This document shows, one piece after another, positions 2,440 through 55,312 of a stretch of DNA of 64,000 nucleotides (its first letter is position 1; the number at the start of each line of letters is the position of its first letter). The position numbers were made by a program, and so were the translations under genes. The notes beneath the pieces were generated by a model. That model made no database searches. It had not been told where the DNA came from and saw only the letters and a program-made list of their open reading frames with translations. Source of the DNA: Minisyncoccota bacterium (GTDB taxonomy: Bacteria > Patescibacteriota > Minisyncoccia > Phycocordibacterales > SBAW01); assembly GCA_035546615.1 (NCBI GenBank), contig DASZWM010000005.1:1-64000 (forward strand). Reading direction: 5' to 3'.

Positions 2440-3294
2440 ATGAGCGCCGAAGGAATGCCGAAAATAACCAGGGATGCGGCGCCTGCGGCAGGGGCGGCGA
2501 ACGAAAACGAGAAAAATAGAGAACTTGAAATGGGAATCGCTCAGAAGACCCAGGAGAACATAGACCTGTATCTGCAGGCGAACGCAGCCGAGAAGGCGAA
2601 CAACGATCTGCTGGCGGCAAAAGCCTTGCTTGAGAAGGAAGATGCTCATTGGAAGTCCCAAGAGGCCGATCCCGCGGAAACCCCGGCCGTTACTCCGGCG
2701 GCGGACAGCGCGCCCGAAGCGGAAAGCTGGTCGCGCCAAGCGGCTGAGCTGACGGGCATAGCGCGGGAACAGGGGAAGGACCGCGCGAGTCTGAAAGGCG
2801 GCTGGCTGCCGACCCTGACTCCAGACAACGTAGGCTCGCTCTCAAACGGAGAGAGCCGGTTCATGCCTGAAGCAGCGCCGGGAGTTCCCGCGCCTGCCGC
2901 TCCGGAAGTAGTAGCCGTTCCTTCAACGCGAGAAGCTTCCGCTCCCGAGATCGGGCCTGTCACGCCTCCCGCCCCTGAAGCGAATGACGGTATGGAGCAT
3001 GTGCGCAAGCTTTTGAATACTCTCAGCGGCCAAGACCTCAAGCGATTCCGCGCCATGGTAGAGGACGTGCATGCCGGCAACCCGCTCCCCAAGAACGGCT
3101 ACGGGTTCCTCTCCCCGCAAACCGAGCGGGACATGATCGAGGAACTCAGAAGCATGCCGGAAAAAGATTTTACAAAGATACGGGAAACAATTCTTCCGCA
3201 GGAAGAAACGCGGCGCATGCAAGTGGAAAGAACGCAAGAAAAGAAAGGATTTTGGAGGCGGATTTTTGGCGGGAGCCGCCCGCATGGAGTATAG
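2440..3294 (+). CDS. Hypothetical Pro/Ala/Glu-rich protein, no TM segment.
   Basis: 284-aa ORF with low-complexity P/A-rich centre (PAPAAPEVVAVPS, PVTPPAPEA). Protein-like N- and C-terminal regions. Lies in a divergent spacer after the M23 gene. Confidence 0.4.
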   Translation: MSAEGMPKITRDAAPAAGAANENEKNRELEMGIAQKTQENIDLYLQANAAEKANNDLLAAKALLEKEDAHWKSQEADPAETPAVTPAADSAPEAESWSRQAAELTGIAREQGKDRASLKGGWLPTLTPDNVGSLSNGESRFMPEAAPGVPAPAAPEVVAVPSTREASAPEIGPVTPPAPEANDGMEHVRKLLNTLSGQDLKRFRAMVEDVHAGNPLPKNGYGFLSPQTERDMIEELRSMPEKDFTKIRETILPQEETRRMQVERTQEKKGFWRRIFGGSRPHGV

Positions 3295-3301
3295 TGCTTG
3301 A

Positions 3302-5239
3302 GTGAATCCTCTCGACGGGCTCAATGAGGCTCAAAAAGAAGCGGTGCTGACGACCGAAGGCCCCTTGCTCGTGCTCGCGGGCGCCGGCGCGGGCAAAACG
3401 CGCGTCATTACGCAGCGGATACTCGAGATAATCCGCAAAGGAGTCGCGCCGGAAAAGATACTCGCGATAACCTTCACCAACAAGGCGGCGAGCGAGATGC
3501 GCGAGCGCACGCTCAAGCTCCTGCGCGAGGACAAAGAGCTCAACCGGCCCGCAACACCGGTCCAGGGCAGGCGCTTTGCGGTGCCGTTCATCTCGACCTT
3601 TCATTCGCTCGGGCTCACCATCATAAAAGAGAACTCGAAATTGCTTGGCTACAAGCGAACGCCGGCCATTTACGACCGCGCCGACTCTTTGCGCGCCGCA
3701 AAGGAGGCGCTGAAATCGCTCGGCATGGAAGACATGGAACCCCGCGCGGCGCTTTCGGCCATCTCGCGCCAGAAAGGCGAGGGAATACTGGCGGGAGAAT
3801 ACGCCGAAAGCGCCGACACGCAGCGCGAGCGCACGGTCGCCGCCGTGTGGCTGGCATACGAGCGGCTGCTTCAGAAGGACGGAGCGGTAGACTTCGATGA
3901 CCTTCTGCTCCAGGCGGTGCGGTTTTTGAAGAACAACCCCGAGAGACGCGCCGCGTACCAGGCGCGCTGGCCCTACATACATATAGACGAGTATCAGGAC
4001 ACCAACCGCATCCAGGCGGCTATGGCGGAATTGCTGGTGGGGGAGGCGAAGAACATCTGTGCCGTAGGCGACATCGACCAGACCATCTACGGCTGGCGGG
4101 GGGCGCAGATCGCCAATATCTTTTCGTTTGAGAAAACATTTCCGGGCGGAAAGGTCGTGGTGCTTGAGGAGAATTACCGCTCGACTAAAAATATCCTCGC
4201 GGCCGCCAACGAGGTGATTTCAAAGAATGTCTACCGGCGCGAGAAGAACCTCTTCACGAAAAATCGCGACGGCGAGACTATTTCCCTCTACCAGGCGTTC
4301 GACGAGACGGACGAAGGCCAATTCATCGCGCGCGTGGTGAAAGAATTACTGCGCGAGGGAAAATCGCCGAAGGATTTCTGCGTGCTGTACCGCGCGAACT
4401 TCCAGTCCCGCGCGATAGAGGAGGCTCTGCTCGGAGCCGAGATCCCGTACCAAGTGCTCGGCACAAAGTTCTTCGAGCGGAAGGAAGTGAAGGACGCGCT
4501 TTCGCTGGTGCGAGCCGCCGTATACGGAACCTCCGCGGACATCGCGCGCATCGCCAACGTCCCGCCGCGCGGCATCGGGAAAGTGACCCTGCTCAAGATG
4601 CTGGGCGGGTTCGAGAGCGAACTCGGTGGCGCGGTGGGGGAGAAGGTCCGCTCATTCCGTATGCTGCTGACGCGAGTGAAAGAGGCGGCGGACAAGCTGC
4701 CGCCGTCAAAGCTCCTGCAATACGTTATGCAGGAAAGCGGCATGGAGCGCATGTATAAGGAAGACAAAATGGAAGGCGCGGAGCGGCTGGAGAACGTGCG
4801 CGAGCTCGTGTCGCTCGCGAGCCGCTACGACGAGGCGGCCGAAACTCCTATTGAATGCCTGGAAAAATTCCTCGAGTCCGTAGCGCTGGCCGGCGAACAG
4901 GACGAGCTTAAGGAGGAAGCTAACGCGGTCCGACTCATGACGGTGCATGCAGCGAAGGGTCTTGAATTCCCCCACGTATTCATCACGGGCCTGGAAGAAG
5001 GGCTCTTCCCCTACGAAAGGGAGGAGAACGACGCGGCGGACAAGGAAGAAGAGCGCCGGCTTATGTACGTCGCGCTCACGCGCGCCGAAGACAAAGTGTA
5101 CTTGAGCTATGCGGCATACCGCACGGTCTTCGGCTCCAAAAATGCCACCATTCCATCGCAATTCCTGACCGATATCCCCGAGGAACTTATCAGCCTCGAG
5201 GCGCCCGAGCGCCTGGGCCGCACTATATATCTCGAATAA
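3302..5239 (+). CDS. pcrA: UvrD/PcrA-type ATP-dependent DNA helicase.
   Basis: Walker A AGAGAGKT near the N-terminus. Helicase motifs DEYQDTN, TFHSLG, ENYRST and VHAAKGLEFPHVFI. 645 aa. Confidence 0.9.
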   Translation: MNPLDGLNEAQKEAVLTTEGPLLVLAGAGAGKTRVITQRILEIIRKGVAPEKILAITFTNKAASEMRERTLKLLREDKELNRPATPVQGRRFAVPFISTFHSLGLTIIKENSKLLGYKRTPAIYDRADSLRAAKEALKSLGMEDMEPRAALSAISRQKGEGILAGEYAESADTQRERTVAAVWLAYERLLQKDGAVDFDDLLLQAVRFLKNNPERRAAYQARWPYIHIDEYQDTNRIQAAMAELLVGEAKNICAVGDIDQTIYGWRGAQIANIFSFEKTFPGGKVVVLEENYRSTKNILAAANEVISKNVYRREKNLFTKNRDGETISLYQAFDETDEGQFIARVVKELLREGKSPKDFCVLYRANFQSRAIEEALLGAEIPYQVLGTKFFERKEVKDALSLVRAAVYGTSADIARIANVPPRGIGKVTLLKMLGGFESELGGAVGEKVRSFRMLLTRVKEAADKLPPSKLLQYVMQESGMERMYKEDKMEGAERLENVRELVSLASRYDEAAETPIECLEKFLESVALAGEQDELKEEANAVRLMTVHAAKGLEFPHVFITGLEEGLFPYEREENDAADKEEERRLMYVALTRAEDKVYLSYAAYRTVFGSKNATIPSQFLTDIPEELISLEAPERLGRTIYLE

Positions 5240-23219: not shown

Positions 23220-24101
23220 ATGTCCAAAAAAGAGAATCCTATAAAAATACCAAAAAGACCAACATCTTTTGGCACTCCTGCTGAGTGTGTTCGGTGGGTT
23301 AAAAAATCCGTATATCTTATCGCTCGAGGAAGAGCTTTAAATCCAGAAAAACCAAATGAGCTAAGCTGGTTTACTATTGGAACAGGTTGTGTGGTCGCCC
23401 CCAACCGTATGAGTACTGCAGCCCATGTAATCAATGACCCCTCAAGTCTTGAAAAAACAAAACAGCATCAGTCGGGCGACCAATACTACCTCATTAGACA
23501 TGACGACGAAGGCAACTGGCACTTTAAGGTTCTCACACTAGAACTTAATAAAAATTTATTTTTATATTCTGAGACTGACCTTGGAATCATTTATCTCGAC
23601 GAAGAATTTTATCAAATAGGAGAACAGATTCTCGCGCTAAAGGACGATTATATAAGAGTTGATCAAAAATTTAGAGTGATAGGTACAGAGGTCGCTGTTT
23701 TAGGATACCCTCTTTGTAAGTTAGATTTTATAGAAAAAGATCCAAACAGGCCTCAAGTGGGGGACATATTACTCAGGGTAGACACAGGGGTTATAAACTG
23801 TCGATACAGAATAGCGGAAAATGTTTATCGTTATGAGTTTACTATGGGGTTTAACCCAGGAAATTCAGGAGGGCCTATTTTTGATTGGAGGACAGGGCAG
23901 CTGCTCTCCCTCGTGCATGGTTATAAGGCAATCCCGGTTAATATGTCTGAGCGCGTAATAACCGACGAAGTTAAAAAAAATTTAAAGATTAAAGATTATG
24001 ATGGGAAGTCATTTATCGAAGTCGTTCACGCTAACTACTCAGTGGGCTACGCTACCCCATCTTTTGTGGAGACATTCAAAATACACGGGATAGTAAAATA
24101 G
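23220..24101 (+). CDS. Trypsin-like (chymotrypsin-fold) serine protease with no signal peptide, on a low-GC inserted gene.
   Basis: Catalytic His (STAAHVIND) and Ser (GNSGGPIFDW) motifs. GC content is visibly lower than the flanks (A/T-rich codons throughout, e.g. aaaaaagagaatcctataaaaatacc). It has a hydrophilic Lys-rich N-terminus and no TM segment. Confidence 0.6.
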   Translation: MSKKENPIKIPKRPTSFGTPAECVRWVKKSVYLIARGRALNPEKPNELSWFTIGTGCVVAPNRMSTAAHVINDPSSLEKTKQHQSGDQYYLIRHDDEGNWHFKVLTLELNKNLFLYSETDLGIIYLDEEFYQIGEQILALKDDYIRVDQKFRVIGTEVAVLGYPLCKLDFIEKDPNRPQVGDILLRVDTGVINCRYRIAENVYRYEFTMGFNPGNSGGPIFDWRTGQLLSLVHGYKAIPVNMSERVITDEVKKNLKIKDYDGKSFIEVVHANYSVGYATPSFVETFKIHGIVK

Positions 24102-29272: not shown

Positions 29273-30409
29273 ATGAAAATAGGAGAATTCATTCAGCAAC
29301 CCCAAGGTTTTAAAACCTTTGTGCCCGATAAGTTTCCTCACAAGGATTTATCAAGCGTTATATTAAATCCGCAAACCTCTCAGCTTCACGCCCGGGCCGC
29401 TTTTTTGCTTGGGAAGTTGGATGGCATCACTCAACTTCTGCCAGATTTGGATTTTTTCATCTTCATGTATGTAAGAAAAGAAGCGGCGTTCTCAAGCGAA
29501 ATAGAGGGCACAAGAGCGACAATGATTGACGCTATCAGAGCGGAAGTAGAACTTACTCGCGATCTGCCTAATGACGTGGAGAACATTCTAAAATACATTG
29601 ACGCAATGAACTATGGTCTTAAGAGACTCGAGAACTTTCCACTCTCTCTGCGCCTCATTCGAGAGGTACATAAGACCCTTCTTGAACAGACGCAAGGCGG
29701 TATAGGCAAAACACCAGGAGAGTTTAGAACTTCTCAAAATTGGATCGGGGGTGCCTCGCCCGCAACGGCACGCTTCGTACCACCCCCTGTCGCAGCTATG
29801 CATGACGCCCTAGGGGACTTAGAGAAGTTTCTACATAATAGTGCGGATATTCCACCTCTTATCAAAACCGCTCTTGCACACTCTCAGTTCGAAACAATAC
29901 ATCCTTTTCTGGATGGTAATGGCCGCACAGGTAGACTTCTCGTCACCTTTTACCTCTGCCAACAGGAAGTACTTGAACGTCCGGTATTGTATCTCTCTGC
30001 CTATTTTAAGAAGCATCGAGACACCTATTTTGATCTGCTTAACGGCTACCATAACAAAGGCGAAATAGTCCCGTGGCTGAACTTCTTTTTAGAAGGAGTG
30101 GCTGAAGTGGCAGAGGCAGCAATTAAGGTTTCTCAAGCCATTAATATCTTACGTGAGGAAGACCAAATGAAAATTCAGGCTTTTGGTAGGTCGGCTGGCG
30201 TAGCGATGAAAGTGCTAAGAGCGCTTTACAAACTTCCTATTGTAGACGTACGCAAAATTCAGGAGTTGACAGGCTATTCCAGAACAGCCGCGAACAACTT
30301 TGTGAAAAAGCTTGTGGATCTGGAGATTCTTGTTCAGCGTAATAAAAAAGCTACCTATGGGCGACAATTCGAATACGCACGCTATTTAAAACTCTTTGCA
30401 AAAGAGTAA
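29273..30409 (+). CDS. fic: Fic family protein (putative AMPylase) with an N-terminal inhibitory motif and a C-terminal winged-helix-like domain, on a low-GC gene.
   Basis: Fic active-site motif HPFLDGNGRTGR. SxxxEG inhibitory motif (AAFSSEIEGT) upstream in the same polypeptide (class II arrangement). GC is clearly lower than the flanks. Inserted between yebC and ruvB. Confidence 0.85.
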   Translation: MKIGEFIQQPQGFKTFVPDKFPHKDLSSVILNPQTSQLHARAAFLLGKLDGITQLLPDLDFFIFMYVRKEAAFSSEIEGTRATMIDAIRAEVELTRDLPNDVENILKYIDAMNYGLKRLENFPLSLRLIREVHKTLLEQTQGGIGKTPGEFRTSQNWIGGASPATARFVPPPVAAMHDALGDLEKFLHNSADIPPLIKTALAHSQFETIHPFLDGNGRTGRLLVTFYLCQQEVLERPVLYLSAYFKKHRDTYFDLLNGYHNKGEIVPWLNFFLEGVAEVAEAAIKVSQAINILREEDQMKIQAFGRSAGVAMKVLRALYKLPIVDVRKIQELTGYSRTAANNFVKKLVDLEILVQRNKKATYGRQFEYARYLKLFAKE

Positions 30410-45715: not shown

Positions 45716-48700
45716 GTGAGCTTCAAGTGCTTGAAGAAATATTTTTTTCTCCTTCCGCTGCTTGTTTTTATAGGTCCTGCGCCCTTTGTCATGGCCGCCC
45801 CCACGTTTCAAGTGGGGCCGATTTACCTCACTACGACAAGCGCGTCAAACCAAACCTGGCCCGTGCCTTCTGACTGGAACAATGCGAGCAACATCGTGCA
45901 GGTTATTGCGGCTGGAGGAGGCGGGGGCGGAGTCGCCAGCAACACGACGGGGAGCGGCGGGGGCGGCGGGGGCGGCGGATATTCAAAATCGACAAATATT
46001 ACCCTTTCCGGTTCATCGGTAACGTATCGTCTTGCGCCCGGCGGCGCCGGCGGAGGATCGTCGGCTGCGGTTGCCGGAGGCGATGCATGGTTTAACGGCA
46101 CCACATGCGCGGCTGCCTCCGTCTGCGCGAAAGGCGGAGGGGCAGGGGGCGCAGGCACAGGCGGAGGGGGAGGCGCCGCGGGCGCAGGCGGGCCGGCTAC
46201 AGGAGGAGTCGCGTCAGGCACCGGCTCAATAAAAAATAACGGCGGCGCAGGCGGGGCAGGCACAGGTGTTTCCGCCGGCGGCGGAGGGGGCGGCGCGGGC
46301 GGCCCAAACGCCGCCGGCGGGACTGGCAATCGCACCAATGGCGGGCAAGGGGACGGCACTGCAGGCGGCGCCGGCGGGATGACAAGCCTCATCAGGGCCG
46401 CGTCTGCTGGAAGCCCAGGAACTGAATTTTCATCCTCGCCCGCGTACGGGTCCGGCGGCGGCGGCGGAGGTTCTAGATACGCAGCGGACGCGGCAGCGGG
46501 AGGCACGTACGGCGCGGGCGGCGGCGGAGCTTTTGCTGCCTCCTCCGGTACCCTCCGCCGCGGAGGAGCCGGCGCTCCCGGGCTTATTGTGATTAATTAC
46601 AGCGCACCTCTTACCGTTTCCATTACCGCGCCGACCAACAGCGGCAACGCATGTATTGGCACGCCCGGTGCATTTACCATCAGCCGCAACGGGCCGGCAA
46701 CTTGGCCTGCAGTGCCGGTTGATCTTATATACGGCGGAAGCGGGAGCACCGCGGCTGCGGGGATAGACTACTCCGCTGCTGCGACAACGGTCACCATACC
46801 GGCAAATACCATGTCTATAACGCTTCCCATTACCGCGCTTCAAAAAACATCGGGCGGCAGCACTACGCTCAAGGCGACCATAGCCGCATCCTCGGCCTAT
46901 TCCGTCGGTACGCCAGCGAGCGCCACAATAGTTATTAACAATGGGACTCCGGCGATTGAGACAGTCGCCCCCTACACGATCGCTCCTTTTGCTGCTTACC
47001 CATTGCCCTACAATGGCTACATTTATCACCAAAATGGCGGTTCCGGCTACACTAATCCATTTGCCACTCCCGCAAGCATTCTTAATACATGGATCAGCAA
47101 TAGCCCTTCGCCCCAACTATGCGGCGCCAACGGCGGTACGGCCGGTATATCGCTTCCTAGTGACACGGCACAGGGCGTATGCATGGGTCCTAATTTCTCC
47201 GGCACTGTAGCAGGCACCCGGGTTGCGGTCCTGCAGGCGGTAGCGCAGACTGCAGGCATTCCTCCGGTTAATGTCGGCCTCGATCTCACGAATGTCAAAA
47301 AAACAAATCCTTGCAACACTTCAACAACGCACTGGGCGTACGCTACTGCGCCGACACAAAATACGCCCGCCGCGACGCTTAAGGTCCCTAAATACACACC
47401 GGTCCAGTTCTCTTATCAATGTTTGCCGAACCAGAATTATGTTTGGTTTAACGCCGCATGCCAAGGCGCTTACATTATTAGCTGCCTTAGCTGGACGCTT
47501 GTTACCGATGGCGACCTCAATGTCCAGACAGCGGATCGAGCGTGGTACAAGGGCACTGAAACGGCGAACCTTATCGACAGTTCTACGCAGACATTCAGCA
47601 ATTCGCAGAGCGTTACGCTCCAATGCGGCGGCTATCAGCCTCAAGAAGGGATTCCCGCAAACGGCGGTTCTCCGCCAGCTGCATCCTCCGGCACTGCTCC
47701 TACTGGAGGCAGCTACACGGTATACGGTATGCAGAATCCTTCCTATCGGCAGCCGCAAATACAAGTTGACGTACAGACATGCTCGGATCCTACCGCTATC
47801 GTACAGGGCGGTGCGTGCGTTCCGTGCAATACGGTAACTTCGGGCAGTTATCGTTCGGGTAATACCTGCGTCTTGTATCCGCCCCCGACGGCGACTATCC
47901 AAGCCAATAACGCCGGTTTTCAAGCGGCAGACAGCAGCGGCAACAAGAACGGAAAATTAGTTTCAGTTGGGGCGGGACAGCAAGTAACTGTAGCCGCCAC
48001 GTATGCTGGCAGTACCAATCAAACTCAAAAAACCGTCTTTATTACTGCCGCAGGTTCTGGCGTATGGACCGTGCCAAGCGATTGGAACAGCGCCAATAAC
48101 AGCATCGAGGTTATAGGCGGCGGCGGCACGGCGGCTTTTACGGGAGGCCGAGGCGGCGGGGGCGGCGGCGGCGCGTATTCAAAAAAGACTAATATTTCCC
48201 TCACGCCTGGCGCGCCTGTGACATATAGGGTGGGTCAAGGTGCGGCCCAAGGGAGTCCGGCCGCTCCGGGTGACGATACTTTTTTTAACCGGACCGCCGG
48301 TTCCTCAAATACCTGCGCCGATACGGTTTCGGTATGTGCCAAGGGCGGAAACAGCGGCAATGGCAACAATGGTGGAGCTGGAGGCGCTGCGAGTGGCGGC
48401 GTCGGCACTGTTAAATATTCGGGGGGCGCCGGCGCTTACGGCGATAATAACAATTCCGGCAACGGCGGCGGCGCAGGAGGTCCCAACGGGAATGGTCAAG
48501 CGGGAGACAGTGGCGGCGCAGGGGATGCGGGGCTTGGCGGCGCGGGCAGCGGTTGTGGCAACCCACCTGCGGCTGGGGGGAATGGTGCCGAGTGGATTGC
48601 TACCAATGTGTGGAGTGGCACTGCATACACGGGCGCAACGCCGACGGGCGGCTCCGGCGGGGGCGGCGGGTGCCGCTCATCCATTGCCGCTCCGGGCGGT

Positions 48701-49552
48701 AACGGCGGTTTGTATGGCGGCGGAGGCGGCTCCGGCGGAGGCAGCCAGAGCAATGAAGGAGTCGGGGCTCAGGGCATTATCGTAATCAAATATACCTCAA
48801 CCGGCGACCCTCTTGAGGCTACCGCTATCAATTGCGACTCGGGATGCGATTCACAGGACGGTGATACTGTTAACTGTAACCTTGTTGCTCCTCCCAATCC
48901 GCCGGCGGCTCCTGATCCAAACTGTTGGCGGAAACCCGATGCGACAAAGACGTATACCTTTACGCCGGCATCAGCAGACGCGGGAAAGACGTTTGTATTT
49001 TCCGCACAGGCAAAAACTTTTAACTACATCAACTATAACGGCTACGCTACCGTGCAGGTGCGGGTATGCCCGATCGGTCAGGGAACGGACGGCAACGGCG
49101 GATGTATTGCGGACGCATGCACCAACAATATCGTATTCCCAGGCAGCCAGACGACAGTACCCGCAGGATGTACGGGTAATCCGGACAATACGTGCAGCGT
49201 GCCCACCGGCTATGCGTTCAACGGCGCGGCCTGCGTCCCTTCAGCTCCGTCGGTTCCGACCCTTAGCCAAAACTCATTTACCGCCACCCGCGTACGTATG
49301 GGGGCGGCATCGACGCTTTCATGGAACATACCGGGTATGGCGAGCGGCATTACATGCGATATCAGTCCTGCGGATAAATTGCAGAGCCCGATGCCTGCCT
49401 GGACAAGCGGCTCTACTTGGATCGGCTCGGTACAGACGACCAGCATATACGGGCCCACCAAATATACGCTCACGTGCACTAACAGCACGACCGACCCGCC
49501 GGCCACCCGCAGCGTCATCGTCAACATCATCCCTGCGTATCAGGAGATATAG
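45716..49552 (+). CDS. Giant (1278 aa) secreted glycine-rich / Cys-rich surface protein with two internally duplicated Gly-rich modules and a C-terminal domain shared with the 42132 paralog.
   Basis: Signal peptide MSFKCLKKYFFLLPLLVFIGPAPFVMAAP. Module 1 (aa about 40-300) and module 2 (aa about 770-1010) both begin W(P/T)VPSDWN…IEVIGGGG…YSK(K)TNI(T/S)L…VTYR… and end …G(A/G)(P/Q)G(L/I)IVI(N/K)Y. The C-terminus …STLSWNIPGMASGITCDISPADKLQSPMPAWTSGSTW…YTLTCTN…IPAYQEI matches the paralog. Confidence 0.7.
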   Translation: MSFKCLKKYFFLLPLLVFIGPAPFVMAAPTFQVGPIYLTTTSASNQTWPVPSDWNNASNIVQVIAAGGGGGGVASNTTGSGGGGGGGGYSKSTNITLSGSSVTYRLAPGGAGGGSSAAVAGGDAWFNGTTCAAASVCAKGGGAGGAGTGGGGGAAGAGGPATGGVASGTGSIKNNGGAGGAGTGVSAGGGGGGAGGPNAAGGTGNRTNGGQGDGTAGGAGGMTSLIRAASAGSPGTEFSSSPAYGSGGGGGGSRYAADAAAGGTYGAGGGGAFAASSGTLRRGGAGAPGLIVINYSAPLTVSITAPTNSGNACIGTPGAFTISRNGPATWPAVPVDLIYGGSGSTAAAGIDYSAAATTVTIPANTMSITLPITALQKTSGGSTTLKATIAASSAYSVGTPASATIVINNGTPAIETVAPYTIAPFAAYPLPYNGYIYHQNGGSGYTNPFATPASILNTWISNSPSPQLCGANGGTAGISLPSDTAQGVCMGPNFSGTVAGTRVAVLQAVAQTAGIPPVNVGLDLTNVKKTNPCNTSTTHWAYATAPTQNTPAATLKVPKYTPVQFSYQCLPNQNYVWFNAACQGAYIISCLSWTLVTDGDLNVQTADRAWYKGTETANLIDSSTQTFSNSQSVTLQCGGYQPQEGIPANGGSPPAASSGTAPTGGSYTVYGMQNPSYRQPQIQVDVQTCSDPTAIVQGGACVPCNTVTSGSYRSGNTCVLYPPPTATIQANNAGFQAADSSGNKNGKLVSVGAGQQVTVAATYAGSTNQTQKTVFITAAGSGVWTVPSDWNSANNSIEVIGGGGTAAFTGGRGGGGGGGAYSKKTNISLTPGAPVTYRVGQGAAQGSPAAPGDDTFFNRTAGSSNTCADTVSVCAKGGNSGNGNNGGAGGAASGGVGTVKYSGGAGAYGDNNNSGNGGGAGGPNGNGQAGDSGGAGDAGLGGAGSGCGNPPAAGGNGAEWIATNVWSGTAYTGATPTGGSGGGGGCRSSIAAPGGNGGLYGGGGGSGGGSQSNEGVGAQGIIVIKYTSTGDPLEATAINCDSGCDSQDGDTVNCNLVAPPNPPAAPDPNCWRKPDATKTYTFTPASADAGKTFVFSAQAKTFNYINYNGYATVQVRVCPIGQGTDGNGGCIADACTNNIVFPGSQTTVPAGCTGNPDNTCSVPTGYAFNGAACVPSAPSVPTLSQNSFTATRVRMGAASTLSWNIPGMASGITCDISPADKLQSPMPAWTSGSTWIGSVQTTSIYGPTKYTLTCTNSTTDPPATRSVIVNIIPAYQEI

Positions 49553-49739: not shown

Positions 49740-50210
49740 CTAGAGGCCGAAGATCTCGGCTACGTGCTCGCCCACGTGCGGGCCCTGCTCCTCTTCCTGC
49801 ACCCGGGTTTTGAGATGCTCGCGCACGTCGGCGCCCTGCTGGGCGCTGTCGAGTATCAAAGAGAAGTGGGGAGCAAGAACTCCGCGCATTGTCATGAAAA
49901 GCCGGGGATTTTCCTGGTCATGCTCGACCCAGAACGTGTGTATGGCTGAATAGGGGTAGCGCGTGCCGTCTACCGACAGGCCGCGGTCGTCCATATGGAC
50001 CGAGTGCTCGCGGGGGCCGCGCGCGGCGAGAAAGCCTATCGACAGCGCGCCTATTGCGATAATAACGGCGAAAAGAAAGTTGCCGAAGAATACCGCAGCT
50101 ACTCCGCCCGCGAGCGCGATAACGCCCAAGCCCCAGTACCAGTCGGTGCTGCGCTCGCGGTGCTCGTGCGTCGTAACGCTCCATTCCATGCGCTCCGTAG
50201 TGCCTGGCAT
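49740..50210 (-). CDS. Hypothetical membrane protein with 2 TM helices and a cytoplasmic PH-like (YdbS/YdbT-type) domain.
   Basis: TM pair WGLGVIALAGGVAAVFFGNFLFAVIIAIGALSIGFL, followed by an approx 90-aa soluble domain. 156 aa. Confidence 0.45.
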   Translation of the reverse strand: MPGTTERMEWSVTTHEHRERSTDWYWGLGVIALAGGVAAVFFGNFLFAVIIAIGALSIGFLAARGPREHSVHMDDRGLSVDGTRYPYSAIHTFWVEHDQENPRLFMTMRGVLAPHFSLILDSAQQGADVREHLKTRVQEEEQGPHVGEHVAEIFGL

Positions 50211-50254
50211 ATCGTCTTCAGTATACCATCACGCAACTGGTATACTTTTAAGAT

Positions 50255-51067
50255 ATGAAGACAATCAAACTAAACGAGGATGCGAATATCCCCGTGCTCG
50301 GCCTGGGCACGTGGCAGCTGACGGGGGATGCGTGCACGGAAGCCGTCCGCTACGCGCTTGAGCTCGGCTACACGCATATCGATACCGCCGATGTGTATGG
50401 TAATCATGCGGAAGTGGCGAGCGGCGCTAAAGCCTCCGGCGTCGCACGGGAGAAGTTCTTCCTTACCACCAAGGTGTGGCGCACCGACTTGGCGCACGAC
50501 CCGCTTGTGGAGAGCGCGGACCGCTTTCTTGAAGAGCTCGCTACCGACTATATCGACCTCCTCCTTATTCACTGGCCTAACAGCGAGATTCCTGTCGAGG
50601 CCAGTCTTAGGGCGATGGAGGAGCTTAAGCGCGCCGGAAAGGTGCGCGCGATAGGCGTTTCTAACTTTACTGTTCATCACCTTAAGGACGCACTTGAAGC
50701 CGGGGTTGAAATAACCAACAACCAAGTAGAGATACGTCCCGCCTTCGCGCAAAAAGAACTGCGTGATTTCTGTGCTTCCAAGGATATTTCCGTAACCGCG
50801 TACTCGAGCCTGCGCGGCGGTGCTAATGAATTGCCGCTTATCGTGGAATTGGCAGGGAAGTACGGCAAGACTGCTTCGCAGATAATCCTCAACTGGGTTG
50901 TGGCTCGCGGCATGATAGCGATACCTAAGAGCTCGCACCCGGAGCGCATTAAAGAGAATTTCGAGTCAGTAGATTTCGAAATGGAAGAAGCGGACCTCGC
51001 GCGCATAGATGCGCTGCCGGAAGGGAAGCGGGTTAATACGCCGGCCTTCGGGGAATTCGATTATTGA
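50255..51067 (+). CDS. Aldo/keto reductase (2,5-diketo-D-gluconate reductase-like).
   Basis: AKR motifs IPVLGLGTW, GYTHIDTADVYGNH, LLLIHWP and IGVSNF. 270 aa. Confidence 0.85.
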   Translation: MKTIKLNEDANIPVLGLGTWQLTGDACTEAVRYALELGYTHIDTADVYGNHAEVASGAKASGVAREKFFLTTKVWRTDLAHDPLVESADRFLEELATDYIDLLLIHWPNSEIPVEASLRAMEELKRAGKVRAIGVSNFTVHHLKDALEAGVEITNNQVEIRPAFAQKELRDFCASKDISVTAYSSLRGGANELPLIVELAGKYGKTASQIILNWVVARGMIAIPKSSHPERIKENFESVDFEMEEADLARIDALPEGKRVNTPAFGEFDY

Positions 51068-51414
51068 GAAAAGTTTTTGCCGATGGCATTCCACGGCAGT
51101 TTCATGCCTGATTCCGGAAACTTGTCGAGAATCCATTGTACGTAAGTATTACTGTTGGGACCACGCAAGCCGTATTTCTCTTTAAAAGGATATTGATCTA
51201 CAGAAGAAGTAATACAGTCAGCCATTCGCTCCGCAGTGGAACCATCTGCACCTTCGACAGTATCTACTATTGCAGAATTCCAGTGGAAGTAATGAACAAA
51301 AGCGAATGTCTGTATCCCGTCGGTAGGGGAAAGTAAGTCTGCGTCGAGATGGCCCCAGCTTTTGTCGCGAATCTGTCGTCCGAATCCTATTTCCCAGCGT
51401 GATATAGCGCCTTT
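51061..51414 (-). pseudogene. 5'-truncated gene remnant (117 codons open, no start codon), low GC.
   Basis: Minus-strand frame is open from a TAA at 51417..51415 to a TAA at 51063..51061. It encodes a protein-like sequence (…WGHLDADLLSPTDGIQTFAFVHYFHWNSAIVDTVEGADGS…YGLRGPNSNTYVQWILDKFPESGMKLPW…) but has no ATG/GTG/TTG near its 5' end. It lies adjacent to the HNH endonuclease and tRNA-Ser. Confidence 0.35.
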
Positions 51415-51544
51415 TTATTCACGACGAACCAAGGATGGATAGCAAAGTTAAAAGGGATACAGGCAGGACATGCAAAAAGAAATACCTGATATAAGTCTTT
51501 CTTTAAGAGTTTCTGGAACTCGGCTTCGGTCATATTTCCAAACT

Positions 51545-51631
51545 TTGGCGGAGGGGGTGAGATTCGAACTCACGGTACCTTGCGGTACTCTTGTTTTCAA
51601 GACAAGTGCACTCGGCCTCTATGCGACCCCT
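51545..51631 (-). tRNA. tRNA-Ser (anticodon TGA), long variable arm, CCA encoded.
   Basis: Reverse complement: acceptor GGAGGGG/CCCCUCC, anticodon stem CUUGU/ACAAG with loop CUUGAAA, long variable arm AGUACCGCAAGGUACC, T-arm GUGAGUUCGAAUCUCAC, then G + CCA. Confidence 0.8.
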
Positions 51632-52113
51632 CCCTGGCGATTTTGTATCTTACCACTGTACCAGTTATTTTCTAGGTAATGTTCCTCTGAGTGACAATTT
51701 GGACAAAGTAGTTCCAGGTTATCCAGCGTATTGTGTTGCCGGTTTCTGTCTTTGTGATGTACGTTTAATATCTCATACCTTGCATATCCGCATCGTTCGC
51801 AAATGGGGCCTCGCAGTTTCAACAGACGAAGTTTCAAGCCTCGCTGGTATACAACTTTGTCCTTAGGCGCTCGACCTTTGTATTTTATTCCTGCACGGTT
51901 GGTATTGGCGCAGCCTCTGCTACATGTATTTTTGTTTGCACTAGAGAGAATAGGTTTACCGCAGACAACACAAGGGTGTTCTTTTCGAGTAGCTAGTCCA
52001 TAACAGGTTTGACTGCAAAATACTCGACCTTGTTTAATTTGACCCGGTCGTCTATAGATTGGTTTGCCACAAACTGTGCATGCAGTATTGGGATTTCTTT
52101 TATACTCATCCAC
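51619..52113 (-). CDS. HNH endonuclease, on a low-GC gene.
   Basis: Zn-finger-like CxxC pairs (CTVCGKP; CVVCGKP; CERCGYARY). HNH motif ILNVHHKDRNRQHNTLDNLELLCPNCH. GC is lower than the genome average. The last 13 nt overlap the 5' end of tRNA-Ser. Confidence 0.75.
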   Translation of the reverse strand: MDEYKRNPNTACTVCGKPIYRRPGQIKQGRVFCSQTCYGLATRKEHPCVVCGKPILSSANKNTCSRGCANTNRAGIKYKGRAPKDKVVYQRGLKLRLLKLRGPICERCGYARYEILNVHHKDRNRQHNTLDNLELLCPNCHSEEHYLENNWYSGKIQNRQGGVA

Positions 52114-52172
52114 TAATCCAGTATACCAATTCTTAGTATGGCAGGCAATACACTTTTTCCTGTCCGTAGGCT

Positions 52173-52847
52173 ATGCTCGAAGGGAACATGGATATCCAGA
52201 TTGAGCGGCTGAAGAAAAATATAGACAAATTACAGAAGACGCATGGCCACCCGGACTATACAGCCTTGTACGGGACTGGCTGTATCGATCATCCGGACCT
52301 TTTTCTTATTCTTATGAATCCGACCGCACGCAATATATCCGTGCACAAGGATTGGAAGGGTCTTAAGGCTTCCTGGCTCGGGACAAAGAACTTTTGGAAG
52401 ATACTCTATAAACTCGAACTGATCTCGGCCAAAACTTTTGCAGCTACCCAGGAACGCGCCCCGGCCGAATGGGACAATGATTTCTGCGTCGCGGTGTATA
52501 CGGAGCTGGCGCGCAACAAGGTTTTTATCACCAACTTAGGCCGTTCAACCCAGCCTGACGCTCGACCACTCCCTGACGCGGTATATAAAGCGTGCGTTGC
52601 GCTCACCCAGGAAGAGATAAACGCAGTGAAGCCTAAAGTGGTCGTTCTCTTCGGGAATCAAGTAAGCTCAGCTTTGCTTGAAACACCGATCAAGGTTTCT
52701 GAAACCCGCAAGAAACGTTTTGATCTTGAGATAGGCGGTACGGTGTATCCCGTATATGCCACCTATTACCCGGTCGGCATGGGATTTATGAATGCCGATA
52801 AGACGATCGAAGATGTTCGCTGGATTCGCAAGGCGCATTCACGATAG
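52173..52847 (+). CDS. Putative uracil-DNA glycosylase superfamily protein (family 4/5-like).
   Basis: 224 aa with UDG-like layout (…LFLILMNPTARN…, …VFITNLGRST…, …VVVLFGNQVSS…). The motif match is approximate. Confidence 0.4.
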   Translation: MLEGNMDIQIERLKKNIDKLQKTHGHPDYTALYGTGCIDHPDLFLILMNPTARNISVHKDWKGLKASWLGTKNFWKILYKLELISAKTFAATQERAPAEWDNDFCVAVYTELARNKVFITNLGRSTQPDARPLPDAVYKACVALTQEEINAVKPKVVVLFGNQVSSALLETPIKVSETRKKRFDLEIGGTVYPVYATYYPVGMGFMNADKTIEDVRWIRKAHSR

Positions 52848-52858
52848 ACTTACTTAGC

Positions 52859-53281
52859 ATGAAATATCTCGGCATAGATTACGGGACCAAGCGCATCGGC
52901 GTAGCTGTCTCTGATGATGGGGGCGTGGTAGCATTTCCCCTCACGACCCTGAAGAGCGATAGGGACGCGGCAGGGGAGGTTGCCGCGCTTGCCAAGAGCC
53001 GCGAGGTCGGAACAATCGTCATCGGCGAGTCTCGCAATTTTCAGAACGAGCCCAACCCTGTGATGGAGGATATTGAGCAGTTCAAAAAAGACATTGCCAA
53101 CCTGACAGGTCTGCCTGTGGAATACGAACGGGAGTTTTTTACCAGCACGCAGGCGGCGCGGCAGTTTGCGCCCGACGGCTCGCGCAAAGACAATCCTTCG
53201 CAGGAAAAGCTGGATGCATCGGCTGCAGCCTTGATTTTACAGGGGTATTTAGACAGAATAGGTGCTAAGAAGCCCATATAG
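52859..53281 (+). CDS. ruvX: Putative pre-16S rRNA nuclease / Holliday junction resolvase-like YqgF (RuvX).
   Basis: MKYLGIDYGTKRIGVAVSD is the canonical YqgF N-terminus. 140 aa. Confidence 0.85.
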   Translation: MKYLGIDYGTKRIGVAVSDDGGVVAFPLTTLKSDRDAAGEVAALAKSREVGTIVIGESRNFQNEPNPVMEDIEQFKKDIANLTGLPVEYEREFFTSTQAARQFAPDGSRKDNPSQEKLDASAAALILQGYLDRIGAKKPI

Positions 53282-53345
53282 TCGTCGCTCGCTCGGAAAT
53301 TAAAGTAAAACTTTATTTCTCTCACTCGCTAGACTATTAAAAACA

Positions 53346-53675
53346 ATGGAACCAATTAGCATAGACGATTTCAAAAAGATAGAGATCCGCATCGGAGAGA
53401 TAAAGAGCGCGGAGAAGATAGAAGGGAGCGACAAGCTCCTGAAGCTTAAGGTTATGTTCGGCGAAGAAGAGCGTCAGGTGCTTTCCGGCATCTCGGCGTA
53501 TTTTCCCAACCCGGAGGACTTGGTGGGGAAGAAGTGCCCGTTCGTTACCAACCTGGCGCCGCGCACCATGATGGGGCTTGAGAGCCAGGCGATGATATTG
53601 GCAACCGGCGGCGACGGCGAAACGCCGTTCGCTCTGTTCGAAACCTCGGGCGCTTCCGGCGCGCGCGTCCGCTAA
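53346..53675 (+). CDS. tRNA-binding protein (CsaA/Trbp111/EMAP-like OB-fold domain).
   Basis: DFKKIEIRIGEIKSAEKIEGSDKLLKLKV…GEEERQVLSGI is the classic tRNA-binding domain signature. 109 aa. Confidence 0.75.
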   Translation: MEPISIDDFKKIEIRIGEIKSAEKIEGSDKLLKLKVMFGEEERQVLSGISAYFPNPEDLVGKKCPFVTNLAPRTMMGLESQAMILATGGDGETPFALFETSGASGARVR

Positions 53676-53678
53676 TTC

Positions 53679-54269
53679 ATGCTTGAGCGACTGCATGAGT
53701 GGAAGGATTCTGCATGGCAGAAATTCATAGTGCTGGCGCAAGGCCCGCATGCGCTCTTCTGGCTCGGCGTATGCGCGCTGACCGATCCGATATTCTTTCC
53801 CATACCGCCGGAGGCATACCTTGCCGCGCTGATCTTGGCTCACCCCAAACGTTTTAATCTATATTTGGGTATTGCCGCCGTCTTTTCGGTACTGGGTGCG
53901 GCACTCGGCTATTTTGTAGGAGCATTTGTATTCCACCAGTTCGGGATGCCGCTCCTCCATTTCTATCACCTGGAGCCCGCATTCCTGCAGGCGCAGGAGC
54001 TTATAAAGGGCGGCGTGTTCGTCGGCATGATATTGGTGGCCTTCCAGCTGATTCCGGAGAAGGTATTCGTGCTCGCGGCGGGCTTCTTGGGAGCGCCGTT
54101 CTTTCCGTTTTTAGCGGGATTCCTGGTGGGCCGCGTGGCGCGTCTTGCCCTTATCGCATATCTCACGAAACGGTTCGGCGCGGACGTAGTGCTGCTTATA
54201 AAGCGGTACTTCCTCGCCGCGACTGTTTTGTTCTTGCTCGCAATAGCGTATTATTTCCTAGTGAAGTGA
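53679..54269 (+). CDS. DedA/YqaA-like membrane protein.
   Basis: Four to five TM helices. FFPIPPEAYLAALIL resembles the conserved YqaA/DedA N-terminal motif. 196 aa. Confidence 0.45.
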   Translation: MLERLHEWKDSAWQKFIVLAQGPHALFWLGVCALTDPIFFPIPPEAYLAALILAHPKRFNLYLGIAAVFSVLGAALGYFVGAFVFHQFGMPLLHFYHLEPAFLQAQELIKGGVFVGMILVAFQLIPEKVFVLAAGFLGAPFFPFLAGFLVGRVARLALIAYLTKRFGADVVLLIKRYFLAATVLFLLAIAYYFLVK

Positions 54270-54374
54270 GTGAAGGAAAGCTCGCTTTATTTCCGAACGA
54301 AAGGACGGAAATATGAATGTACTCGTTCATATGCTATTGTGCATTTCCGCCTGCTGCTTTTGTAGGGGGACAAT

Positions 54375-54446
54375 GCCTTCGTAGCTCAACGGATAGAGCC
54401 GCGCTCTTCTAAGGCGTTGATGTAGGTTCGATTCCTACCGAAGGCA
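54375..54446 (+). tRNA. tRNA-Arg (anticodon TCT).
   Basis: Acceptor GCCUUCG/CGAAGGC, D-arm GCUCAACGGAUAGAGC, anticodon loop CUUCUAA, T-arm GUAGGUUCGAUUCCUAC, discriminator A. Confidence 0.8.
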
Positions 54447-54563
54447 CAAATAGTGCGGGGCACTATTTGTGAGCCGCAGGCGCGACGGCGCCGAGGCGGG
54501 GTCGCGGAAATTTTCAGCAGAAAATTATCTGTGACCAAATAGCGGAGAATAAGATAACAGCAC

Positions 54564-54640: not shown

Positions 54641-55312
54641 ATGGAAGGTCCTGCCAAACCCAGTAACAACACTAAGGAAAGCTCTCCTAAGCCTTCTGTT
54701 GAAGTTGAATCAGAGTTTGCCGAATTCGTGCCACAGGACTTCCTTAATGACCCTGTAGGATATTTTGAACGTGGAGGAAAGAATATAAAAACAGGAGAAG
54801 TTAAATATGATGAGGCTGGTGCGCTTCGTGAGGATCCAACTGCTGTAAAAGATTTACCAGTCTGGACGAATAGCAATGGAATAGAAATTCTTACGGTAGG
54901 AAGAAGGGTAAATACGATTAAGGGCGCTGTAGGAGAATCAGGAGATCCTTTCTACGAGTACAAAATCCTTGAGAAGCTTATGGAAATCGGGTTACCCGCT
55001 GCGAGGCCTATTGCGAAAGCAGAACAGGGCGGTACTCATATCATTGTCATGGAGCGTATTCCGGGGGTTAGGTGGTCTGAAAGAGAAAGTCTGAATCTCA
55101 AAGAAAAAGGATACTCTGACGAAGACATTGCAACTCTAATAAGTGAAGCAGAACAGAAAATGGATGGCCTGAAAACTCGCTTTGACGAAGCGGGAGTTAT
55201 TCGCAGTTGGAAACTGAAGGATATGGTATTTGAGATAGACATTGAGAATAAGAAAGTTATTTCTATAGTCCCCACAGATTGGGAAAGGACGAAGATTATT
55301 GAAAAGCAATAG
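54641..55312 (+). CDS. Hypothetical protein with weak protein-kinase-like-fold features, on a low-GC gene starting 5 nt after tRNA-Val.
   Basis: Hinge-like THIIVMERIPG and C-terminal SWKLKDMVFEIDIENKKVISIVPTDWE resemble small Kdo/RIO-type kinase-like proteins. Lower GC than the flanks. 223 aa. Confidence 0.4.
   Translation: MEGPAKPSNNTKESSPKPSVEVESEFAEFVPQDFLNDPVGYFERGGKNIKTGEVKYDEAGALREDPTAVKDLPVWTNSNGIEILTVGRRVNTIKGAVGESGDPFYEYKILEKLMEIGLPAARPIAKAEQGGTHIIVMERIPGVRWSERESLNLKEKGYSDEDIATLISEAEQKMDGLKTRFDEAGVIRSWKLKDMVFEIDIENKKVISIVPTDWERTKIIEKQ

Follow-up and report, generated by a model that had tools for sequence, protein, structure and literature searches.

Phage T5 encodes the HNH enzymes F-TflI, -II and -IV. 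SegB of phage T4 is a free-standing homing endonuclease that is encoded in a phage tRNA cluster, recognizes tRNA gene sequence and spreads with the neighboring tRNA genes (PMC2330249), and according to the citation in that work the three T5 genes also lie in a tRNA cluster. The segB mRNA is cut between its last codon and its stop codon as the next tRNA, tRNA-Arg, matures (PMC2330249). Within the Patescibacteria, HNH homing endonucleases have been described in group I introns of tRNA-Asn(GUU), at position 35/36 (PMC13011429). Here we describe a gene for an HNH endonuclease that runs into the 5' end of tRNA-Ser(UGA) in a 64,000-nucleotide (nt) stretch of DNA from a Minisyncoccota bacterium (contig DASZWM010000005.1 of assembly GCA_035546615.1). 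This whole stretch is called the window, and all gene and tRNA positions follow its numbering; tRNA genes were called with ARAGORN and Rfam. Two unrelated things flank the tRNA gene: a DUF3750 gene downstream and, upstream, a cassette built on the HNH gene. On balance we lean slightly toward reading the latter as a free-standing, selfish homing-type cassette for tRNA-Ser that would be long-lived, mostly vertically inherited, and repeatedly gained and lost.

T4 SegB appears to be the closest functional analogue of this cassette, which would then be its cellular counterpart. Both nuclease reading frames end at the 5' end of the next tRNA, so that maturation of this tRNA would cut the mRNA at the stop codon or ahead of it, and both are present or absent between close relatives. 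SegB, however, is a GIY-YIG enzyme of phage co-infections, whereas the gene described here encodes an HNH protein, resides in bacterial chromosomes and is tied to one tRNA species; the activity and homing of SegB are proven, those of the HNH cassette putative. With the T5 enzymes it shares the HNH family and a free-standing open reading frame (ORF) in a tRNA context, but those are phage genes for enzymes of proven activity and this one is cellular. The intron-encoded enzymes of tRNA-Asn belong to the same phylum and also have a tRNA as their home, but the window's gene lies outside an uninterrupted tRNA, at its 5' flank. Like integrative elements that target tRNA genes, it is a low-GC insert beside a tRNA; unlike them, it sits on the 5' rather than the 3' side, measures only ∼520 nt, and comes without an integrase or an att repeat. 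In the literature we found no description of a free-standing HNH gene paired with tRNA-Ser, only the intron-encoded HNH genes in tRNA-Asn (PMC13011429).

An intact HNH gene ends inside tRNA-Ser(UGA)

The tRNA and the nuclease gene overlap on the same strand, as follows.

51546-51633, minus strand: tRNA-Ser(UGA), called by ARAGORN and matched over its full length by Rfam RF00005 (56.8 bits); type II, its variable arm long and its CCA encoded
51619-52113, minus strand: HNH endonuclease gene, 164 amino acids (aa), GTG start, without an internal stop; Pfam PF01844

The TAG stop codon of the HNH gene (51621-51619) forms positions 13 to 15 of the tRNA, so the two genes overlap by 15 nt, and the last five HNH codons (GGVA*) come from the 5' end of tRNA-Ser. 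A previous, sequence-only reading of the window had put the tRNA at 51545-51631 and the overlap at 13 nt. The tRNA and the overlap are both real, with tRNA coordinates that differ by at most 2 nt from those first given and a stop codon that lies within the tRNA. The same reading had correctly taken the HNH gene to be intact and had noticed low GC on both sides of the tRNA, which the composition check bears out: GC is 0.436 in the HNH gene and 0.435 on the tRNA-distal (downstream) side, compared to 0.568 for the window. The GC of third codon positions (GC3) is 0.36 in the HNH gene and 0.43-0.47 on the downstream DUF3750 side, whereas 57 long ORFs of the window have a median GC3 of 0.68.

The protein scores 29.8 bits against Pfam PF01844 (cut-off, 21.4) and has the beta-beta-alpha-metal motif with catalytic His, Asn and His that defines His-Me finger nucleases of this family. 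The N terminus carries two CxxC...Cx3C zinc ribbons; a basic linker then leads to the C-terminal HNH domain, in which CxxC...CxxC forms a zinc site and thus the third Cys4-type module of the protein. This layout, together with a match to PHROG 1271 (E=4e-20), agrees with the initial description of a homing- or phage-type HNH protein with Zn-ribbon-like Cys pairs. Over 30 aligned HNH sequences, H119, H120, N132, N139, H141 and H145 are invariant, as are C105, C108, C137 and C140. An AlphaFold model of the protein had a pLDDT of 78.6; when it was compared with the PDB using Foldseek, the HNH domains of McrA, Cap5, Gme and GVE2 gave only weak matches (E 0.014-0.3, none ≤0.001), and the whole protein had no significant match. 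A sequence profile search of the PDB returned McrA (E=0.005). PADLOC produced generic HNH matches only, such as ZorE and homing endonucleases, and none to tRNA nucleases, while matches among annotated phages (INPHARED, tblastn) were distant (29-46%). Homologues of the HNH protein form 516 clusters that are 60-80% identical, the best match to the window's copy being 80%.

The HNH gene is bound to one tRNA gene but occurs patchily

A scan of GTDB with one genome per species found HNH relatives in at least 267 species. The best 80 loci, among which the best match was 73%, come from metagenome-assembled genomes labeled Paceibacterota, Nomura-, Kaiser-, Uhr-, Azam-, Moran-, Taylor-, Adler- and Daviesbacteria. 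In 78 of 78 informative loci, tRNA-Ser(tga) lies on the same strand and starts -64 to +100 nt from the HNH stop codon; the other two contigs end at the HNH gene and are therefore uninformative. Together with seven of seven metagenome loci and the window itself, the HNH gene abuts the 5' end of tRNA-Ser(UGA) in 86 of 86 cases. The sequence-only reading had interpreted the locus as a decayed mobile element and had named conservation of the HNH gene at this site across the lineage as an observation that would speak against it; these 86 informative loci supply that observation.

The protein neighbors are far less constant. When ORFs were called crudely, those nearest on the upstream side of the pair formed 41 sequence clusters and those nearest on the downstream side 67. 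RuvX and a small DUF5652-like membrane protein are among the upstream neighbors, and the HNH-tRNA-Ser pair is found in both orientations relative to RuvX. The cassette occupies the spacer from the 5' end of tRNA-Ser to whichever gene is upstream, and the tRNA remains uninterrupted. The DUF5652-like gene (..WKGxALWxAA..WFIxxLxxNTxGILEIxY..) was itself often seen directly upstream of tRNA-Ser where the HNH gene is lacking (L096, L097, L109, L118, L123, L136, L137, L145, L156 and L160), and in L002 the HNH cassette lies between this gene and tRNA-Ser.

A sample not selected for the HNH gene was obtained by fetching 80 metagenome loci via RuvX, 43 of which had tRNA-Ser(UGA) and room on its 5' side. 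The HNH gene was present in six of these 43, each time abutting the tRNA. The nearest RuvX neighbors of the window and of L091, L093, L099 and L113 all lack it. Loci without the gene have 43-126 nt, or the DUF5652-like gene, between tRNA-Ser and RuvX; a profile search of these tRNA-to-RuvX gaps found no degraded HNH gene, and the gaps of 310-530 nt carry the DUF5652-like membrane gene. The HNH gene has two of the features expected of a free-standing homing gene, namely, an intron- and intein-free position beside a conserved gene and presence or absence among close relatives. That it is confined to the position directly before one particular tRNA gene, in hundreds of species from a tiny-genome phylum, amounts to a strong regularity that has apparently not been described.

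Relatives of the protein also occur beside other tRNA genes. IMG/VR holds 227 of them, several in dense tRNA clusters, on contigs that are called viral by their filing in that database and that could be phages or misfiled Patescibacteria. The closest of them (47-52% identity) overlap tRNA-Ser(gga) or precede tRNA-Ser(gct). On contigs of 349-452 kb (L167, at 2995-3474; L168; L169), relatives that are 47-50% identical overlap tRNA-Ser(gga) by 14 nt, and on L172, a contig of 39 kb, the gene for a 36%-identical relative precedes tRNA-Ser(gct) by 30 nt. Other HNH relatives (L197, L201, L224 and L245) were seen among 17-18 tRNA genes in 6.4 kb. A sister HNH protein with 30% identity and two FCS-like zinc ribbons (L133:4248-4891) is encoded next to tRNA-His(gtg); its stop codon lies 15 nt inside the tRNA and its ATG follows TGATATAAT at a distance of 7 nt, the arrangement that is also seen at tRNA-Ser.

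The closest relative lacks the cassette

The closest relative of the window is a contig of GCA_037975565.1 (locus L003), which has the same neighborhood. At the amino acid level the two are 96% identical in RuvX, 96% in the tRNA-binding protein, 94% in a 196-aa membrane protein, 91% in the reductase and 99% in a 156-aa membrane protein, and the flanking DNA is 85-91% identical. Their content differs from the RuvX start (window 52860) to the reductase stop (window 51063), a segment that is an island in both composition and gene content and whose only ORFs in the window are those for the HNH protein, DUF3750 and the following gene.

52173-52847, plus strand: uracil-DNA glycosylase gene, family-4-like; Pfam UDG PF03167, with TIGR00758 below its cut-off

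The window's segment thus consists of this glycosylase gene, the HNH gene, tRNA-Ser and a frameshifted DUF3750 gene. In L003, tRNA-Ser(UGA) lies 41 nt from RuvX and is followed by an intact, 161-aa DUF3750 gene and then by four genes, including HhH-GPD and endonuclease V genes; the HNH gene is absent. Relative to L003, the glycosylase gene is a second insertion in the same variable segment. We also observed that the base-repair genes are swapped in an either/or manner, with the uracil-DNA glycosylase in the window (52173-52847) and HhH-GPD, endonuclease V and two unknown ORFs in L003 (L003:5534-7303).

The DUF3750 alleles (window 51061-51533 and L003:5001-5486) are only 61% identical in amino acids and ∼50% in DNA in the middle of the gene, compared to 91-99% for the flanking genes, and both are low in GC (GC3 0.43-0.47, with genomes at ∼0.68). 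The tRNA-Ser genes of the window and L003 are 80% identical, whereas that of L086, which also lacks the HNH gene, is 90% identical to the window's. The low identity of the DUF3750 and tRNA-Ser alleles points to allele replacement in the RuvX-to-reductase segment.

Putative promoters, ends and possible insertion marks of the cassette

Three short motifs on the minus strand bear on how the cassette is built and where it went in.

52120-52128, minus strand: TGGTATACT, which resembles an extended -10 promoter and lies 6 nt ahead of the GTG in the HNH cassette; putative promoter function
51647-51655, minus strand: TGGTAAGAT, putative extended -10 promoter of tRNA-Ser, within the final codons of the HNH gene (..S G K I..) and 13 nt upstream of tRNA +1
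52146-52158, minus strand: AAAAAGTGTATTG, retained copy of a tRNA-upstream motif, recognized by comparison with the 40 nt that precede tRNA-Ser at loci lacking the HNH gene

The upstream end of the cassette is conserved. In at least 82 of 87 loci the HNH start codon is preceded by (T/A)GTGGTATACTGGAnnA, with the GTG directly after it (window 52128-52111), and TGnTAnnnT occurs at -18 to -13 from the HNH start in at least 82 of the 87, in hosts whose GC ranges from 0.30 to 0.59. A promoter scan upstream of the gene returned TTGCCT-17-TATACT with the TG. From this pattern TGGTATACT reads as the extended -10 promoter of the cassette, and since it sits only 6 nt from the GTG, the HNH mRNA is probably leaderless or nearly so. 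The same TGnTAnnnT motif starts -40 to -15 from tRNA +1 in 24 of 86 HNH-bearing loci, usually between -25 and -16; the rest of the 120 nt upstream of the tRNA is nearly free of it. TGGTAAGAT, within the HNH 3' end, is therefore probably the tRNA's own extended -10 promoter; a standard scan did not find a sigma-70 -35/-10 promoter for tRNA-Ser inside the HNH gene.

The conserved part of the HNH protein ends at ...CPNCHxEEHYLExxW, mostly 54-58 nt (range, 39-99) before the tRNA, and the sequence of the tail beyond it depends on what the tRNA's upstream region and 5' end happen to encode. This is why the GGVA ending of the window's copy recurs in several homologues and why a few terminate at the TGA of the anticodon. 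In six loci (L025, L034, L038, L049, L060 and L063) the HNH frame was seen to extend 36-38 nt into the tRNA, most of these stopping at the anticodon TGA.

The left junction of the cassette can be placed by comparison with loci that lack it. In L003, L086, L092, L096 and L098 the motif (AAAAA)GTGTATTGT lies 9-14 nt upstream of tRNA-Ser. AAAAAGTGTATTG of the window is this tRNA-upstream motif, displaced to a position upstream of the HNH cassette, which sets the left junction at ∼52131. As the tRNA motif now lies upstream of the cassette, the cassette would have been inserted, in the window's lineage, between the old promoter region of the tRNA and the tRNA itself. The comparison suggests that this gain came after the split from L003.

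In six loci (L061, at ∼3950-3980; L054; L038; L026; L005; L058) we observed fragments of the tRNA 5' end directly upstream of the HNH cassette. They comprise positions 1 to 14-27 of the tRNA, for example GGAGAGGTCGCATAGCGGACTAGTGCG, and a complete tRNA-Ser still follows the cassette. Such fragments may be the footprint of insertion into the tRNA gene.

The downstream gene is a frameshifted DUF3750 gene

On the other side of the tRNA, the sequence-only reading had reported a 117-codon frame without a start codon near its 5' end, overlapping the stop of an aldo/keto reductase gene by 7 nt. Both observations were reproduced, but a 48-codon ORF just upstream of this frame, offset by one base, had been overlooked. 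The features are as follows.

51387-51533, minus strand: DUF3750, 5' part, ATG at 51533, 48 codons with a premature TAG after the frameshift; MTEAEFQKLLKKD...HPWFVVNKK
51412-51416, minus strand: frameshift site, an A5 run (AAT AAA AAG GCG), located by DNA alignment with L003
51061-51411, minus strand: DUF3750, 3' part, the 117-codon start-less frame; the joined product matches PF12570
50255-51067, plus strand: aldo/keto reductase, its stop overlapped by 7 nt by the convergent 117-codon frame

The ATG at 51533 lies 12 nt past tRNA-Ser, and the 48-codon ORF ends at 51387, one base out of register with the longer frame. Adding one base joins the two into a 157-aa protein that matches Pfam PF12570 (E=5.5e-21; residues 29-155, profile 17-128 of 128), a match of full family length for a gene whose reading frame is interrupted. 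The joined protein has 253 Patescibacteria homologues of ∼155-170 aa, 45-61% identical over 90-100% of its length, with coverage of 99-100% for homologues of ∼160 aa, the best being P0121 (161 aa, 61% identity over 99% of the length). It retains every nearly invariant residue of the family, and its N terminus fits those of the 253 homologues. The DNA alignment locates the lesion: L003 reads AAT AAA AAA GGT (A6) where the window reads AAT AAA AAG GCG (A5), so that one A has been lost. Logan contigs of run SRR12170516 match the window at 100% over 50134-51574 (L085, which spans the frameshift) and over 51561-54507. Because the Logan assembly reproduces the A5 run, the frameshift is not the artifact of one assembler; this was the only other assembly found for the comparison, derives from that single run and may share the window's reads. 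We also noticed that both Logan contigs end inside tRNA-Ser with a 14-nt overlap (51561-51574), which may reflect graph branching from alternative alleles in the population.

What had been called a start-less remnant is thus a full-length gene with one frameshift. By this alignment the downstream gene is a resident DUF3750 gene that has lost one A from an A6 run and now reads as frames of 48 and 117 codons; it is either a pseudogene of very recent origin or a variant at the strain level, and not what remains of a mobile element. It is a resident neighbor of tRNA-Ser in this lineage, given that it is intact at the same place in L003, and it forms no unit with the HNH gene, since none of 160 other loci had DUF3750 beside tRNA-Ser. 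A survey assigns DUF3750 (PF12570) a serine-variant papain-like fold (PMC10318531).

We considered other accounts of the broken frame. A homopolymer error in sequencing or consensus, which would leave the gene intact, fits a lesion that is a single base within an A run in a gene with no other defect and all conserved residues kept. We nevertheless think it unlikely, as the window and contig L085 agree exactly, though probably from the same reads, and the window has no general indel noise, with 90% of it in long ORFs, 57 of which are at least 100 aa. Programmed -1 ribosomal frameshifting at U AAA AAG (51417-51411) could also restore the full-length protein: AAA AAG is a known slippery sequence, as in E. 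coli dnaX and in insertion sequence elements, and a -1 slip of tRNA-Lys from AAG to AAA would yield the family consensus ..VVNKKG AISRWE.. This we consider very improbable, because the heptamer departs from the canonical X XXY YYZ, with U instead of A at position 1, the 90 nt downstream fold no better than shuffled sequences (z=+1.08), and frameshifting is not conserved in the homologues: all 253 that were found are single ORFs, and L003 simply has one A more. Hardly tenable, finally, is the view that the sequence-only reading had taken, in which a single integrative or homing element, inserted at the tRNA and partly decayed, has the HNH gene at one end and the start-less frame at the other. 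Both are low in GC and flank a tRNA, and the segment is unlike that of the closest relative. But the start-less frame is a complete DUF3750 gene less one base, its orthologue stands at the same place in L003, which lacks the HNH gene, and it is missing from all 80 other HNH loci. The pattern expected of an integrative element is not there either: no second copy of the 26-nt tRNA-Ser 3' end, with up to 3 mismatches allowed, was found in the 64-kb window, and neither the ORF list nor Pfam revealed an integrase or recombinase among the genes examined at the locus. Between 44 and 58 kb the only repeats were Gly-rich coding repeats, dominated by those of a 1278-aa ORF, and similarities between tRNAs. 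Nothing at the locus is the rest of a decayed element, and the interpretation as a decayed mobile element is only partly supported, in that the gene encodes a homing-type HNH protein and lies in a variable locus.

Mobile cassette or host gene

If the HNH gene is a homing-type cassette, its life cycle might, by analogy with T4 SegB and the T5 F-Tfl enzymes, be as follows. The ∼520 nt comprise a putative extended -10 promoter, a GTG 6 nt later, and an ORF for two zinc ribbons and an HNH domain that continues past the probable tRNA promoter and into the tRNA as far as a stop codon in the D-loop. The nuclease would nick or cut HNH-less tRNA-Ser loci in or beside the tRNA gene, and repair from an HNH-bearing copy, taken up as DNA, would copy the cassette in. 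Insertion would leave tRNA-Ser with a promoter and so, we propose, impose little cost on the host, while RNase P processing of read-through transcripts would strip the stop codon from the HNH mRNA and hold expression low. We count for mobility the patchy occurrence, the gain in the window's lineage, the linkage to the tRNA only, the conserved end of the cassette, the tRNA fragments, the relatives in IMG/VR and the sister at tRNA-His, as well as a lag in composition, HNH GC3 being below that of the host in every high-GC genome (0.35-0.50 compared to 0.63-0.80).

Several considerations weigh against a homing cassette. Every homing aspect of it is something that we infer. In close pairs of genomes HNH identity equals RuvX identity (e.g., 0.91/0.95 and 0.76/0.77), so short-term inheritance is largely vertical, and the GC of the HNH gene correlates with that of the host (r=0.87), implying long residence. 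Near-identical HNH genes in distant genomes were not seen, the window's copy being matched at 80% at best, and HNH-less loci contain no decayed HNH gene, although a homing cycle of gain, decay and loss predicts some. The tRNA-Ser types are diverse and unrelated to HNH similarity (Spearman -0.03), so that a single conserved DNA target is not obvious; the tRNA-Ser most like the window's belongs to L086. In a test of co-conversion, tRNA-Ser (80%) and DUF3750 (61% aa) fall below the flanks (85-91%) between the window and L003, yet the tRNA type does not co-vary with the HNH gene. The RuvX and GC correlations are equally what would be expected of an ordinary host gene of Paceibacteria-type Patescibacteria, for instance a repair or recombination nuclease by RuvX, that is inherited vertically in an operon with tRNA-Ser and often lost, its tight linkage to the tRNA reflecting shared transcription instead of mobility. 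Every copy is intact and keeps the invariant residues of the catalytic and zinc sites, no decayed ones were found, and synteny of RuvX, the tRNA-binding protein and tRNA-Ser is widespread. We regard this explanation as a serious one but clearly less probable than a mobile cassette. Prevalence in the unselected sample is just 14% and scattered among close relatives; the linkage to the tRNA is far tighter than that to any protein neighbor and survives inversions; and the GC3 lag holds in every high-GC host. Further difficulties are the ancestral motif of the tRNA promoter, which in the window has been moved upstream of the cassette, the relatives in phage tRNA clusters (IMG/VR), the sister lineage at tRNA-His and the tRNA 5' fragments upstream of some cassettes. 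The gene and tRNA-Ser might instead form some other functional pair, for example with the nuclease acting on this tRNA or on the RNA precursor of it, or with a toxin matched by a resistant tRNA. Specificity for serine tRNAs across the UGA, GGA and GCU isoacceptors would fit, and RNA binding is possible for FCS-like zinc ribbons, the protein having weak matches to MYM/FCS-type fingers in Pfam and the PDB. HNH domains, however, are overwhelmingly DNases, PADLOC gave generic HNH matches without a tRNA nuclease, and the sister at tRNA-His argues for a positional logic, not a serine-specific one, so we give such a pairing very little weight.

The homing-type cassette at tRNA-Ser(UGA) may belong to a wider set. 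Tentatively, and with somewhat less conviction than for the single cassette, we propose that minimal, promoter-carrying HNH cassettes, each lineage dedicated to the 5' flank of one tRNA, inhabit Patescibacteria chromosomes and some jumbo-phage-like contigs. The dedicated lineages would be the main family at tRNA-Ser(UGA), the sister at tRNA-His, and those at tRNA-Ser(GGA) and tRNA-Ser(GCU) in viral contigs. Given the tRNA 5' fragments upstream in some genomes, these cassettes may cut within the D-arm of the tRNA. They may spread by DNA uptake and recombination and thereby make the tRNA-Ser neighborhood a hotspot of gene replacement, which the swapped alleles of the tRNA, DUF3750 and repair genes would fit.

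Other features of the window

A second single-gene islet beside a tRNA was observed at 54641-55312, where a 223-aa ORF (GC 0.43, GC3 0.37, no family match) starts 4 nt past tRNA-Val(tac); the ∼690 nt that hold it are an insertion relative to L003 (L003 3039-3164). Further low-GC single-gene islets encode a trypsin-like peptidase (23220-24101, GC3 0.36) and a Fic/DOC protein (29273-30409, GC3 0.43). The 1278-aa ORF, at 45716-49552, has long Gly-rich repeats and a GC of up to 0.72, typical of the large surface proteins of Patescibacteria.

Implications

For annotation, the remnant becomes a frameshifted DUF3750 gene, and the locus is not a degraded island. A frameshifted DUF3750 gene is ordinary; the notable part is an HNH cassette dedicated to tRNA-Ser. 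Were it a host gene, its obligatory coupling to tRNA-Ser would need a functional explanation. Should it prove to be a homing element, phage-style homing in tRNA clusters would also exist in cellular genomes, the protein would be a natural nuclease with a tRNA gene as its target, and local allele replacement around tRNA-Ser could be explained. If, further, the reading of a family of tRNA-dedicated cassettes is true, these genes would be the first cellular counterparts of the homing endonucleases of phage tRNA clusters.

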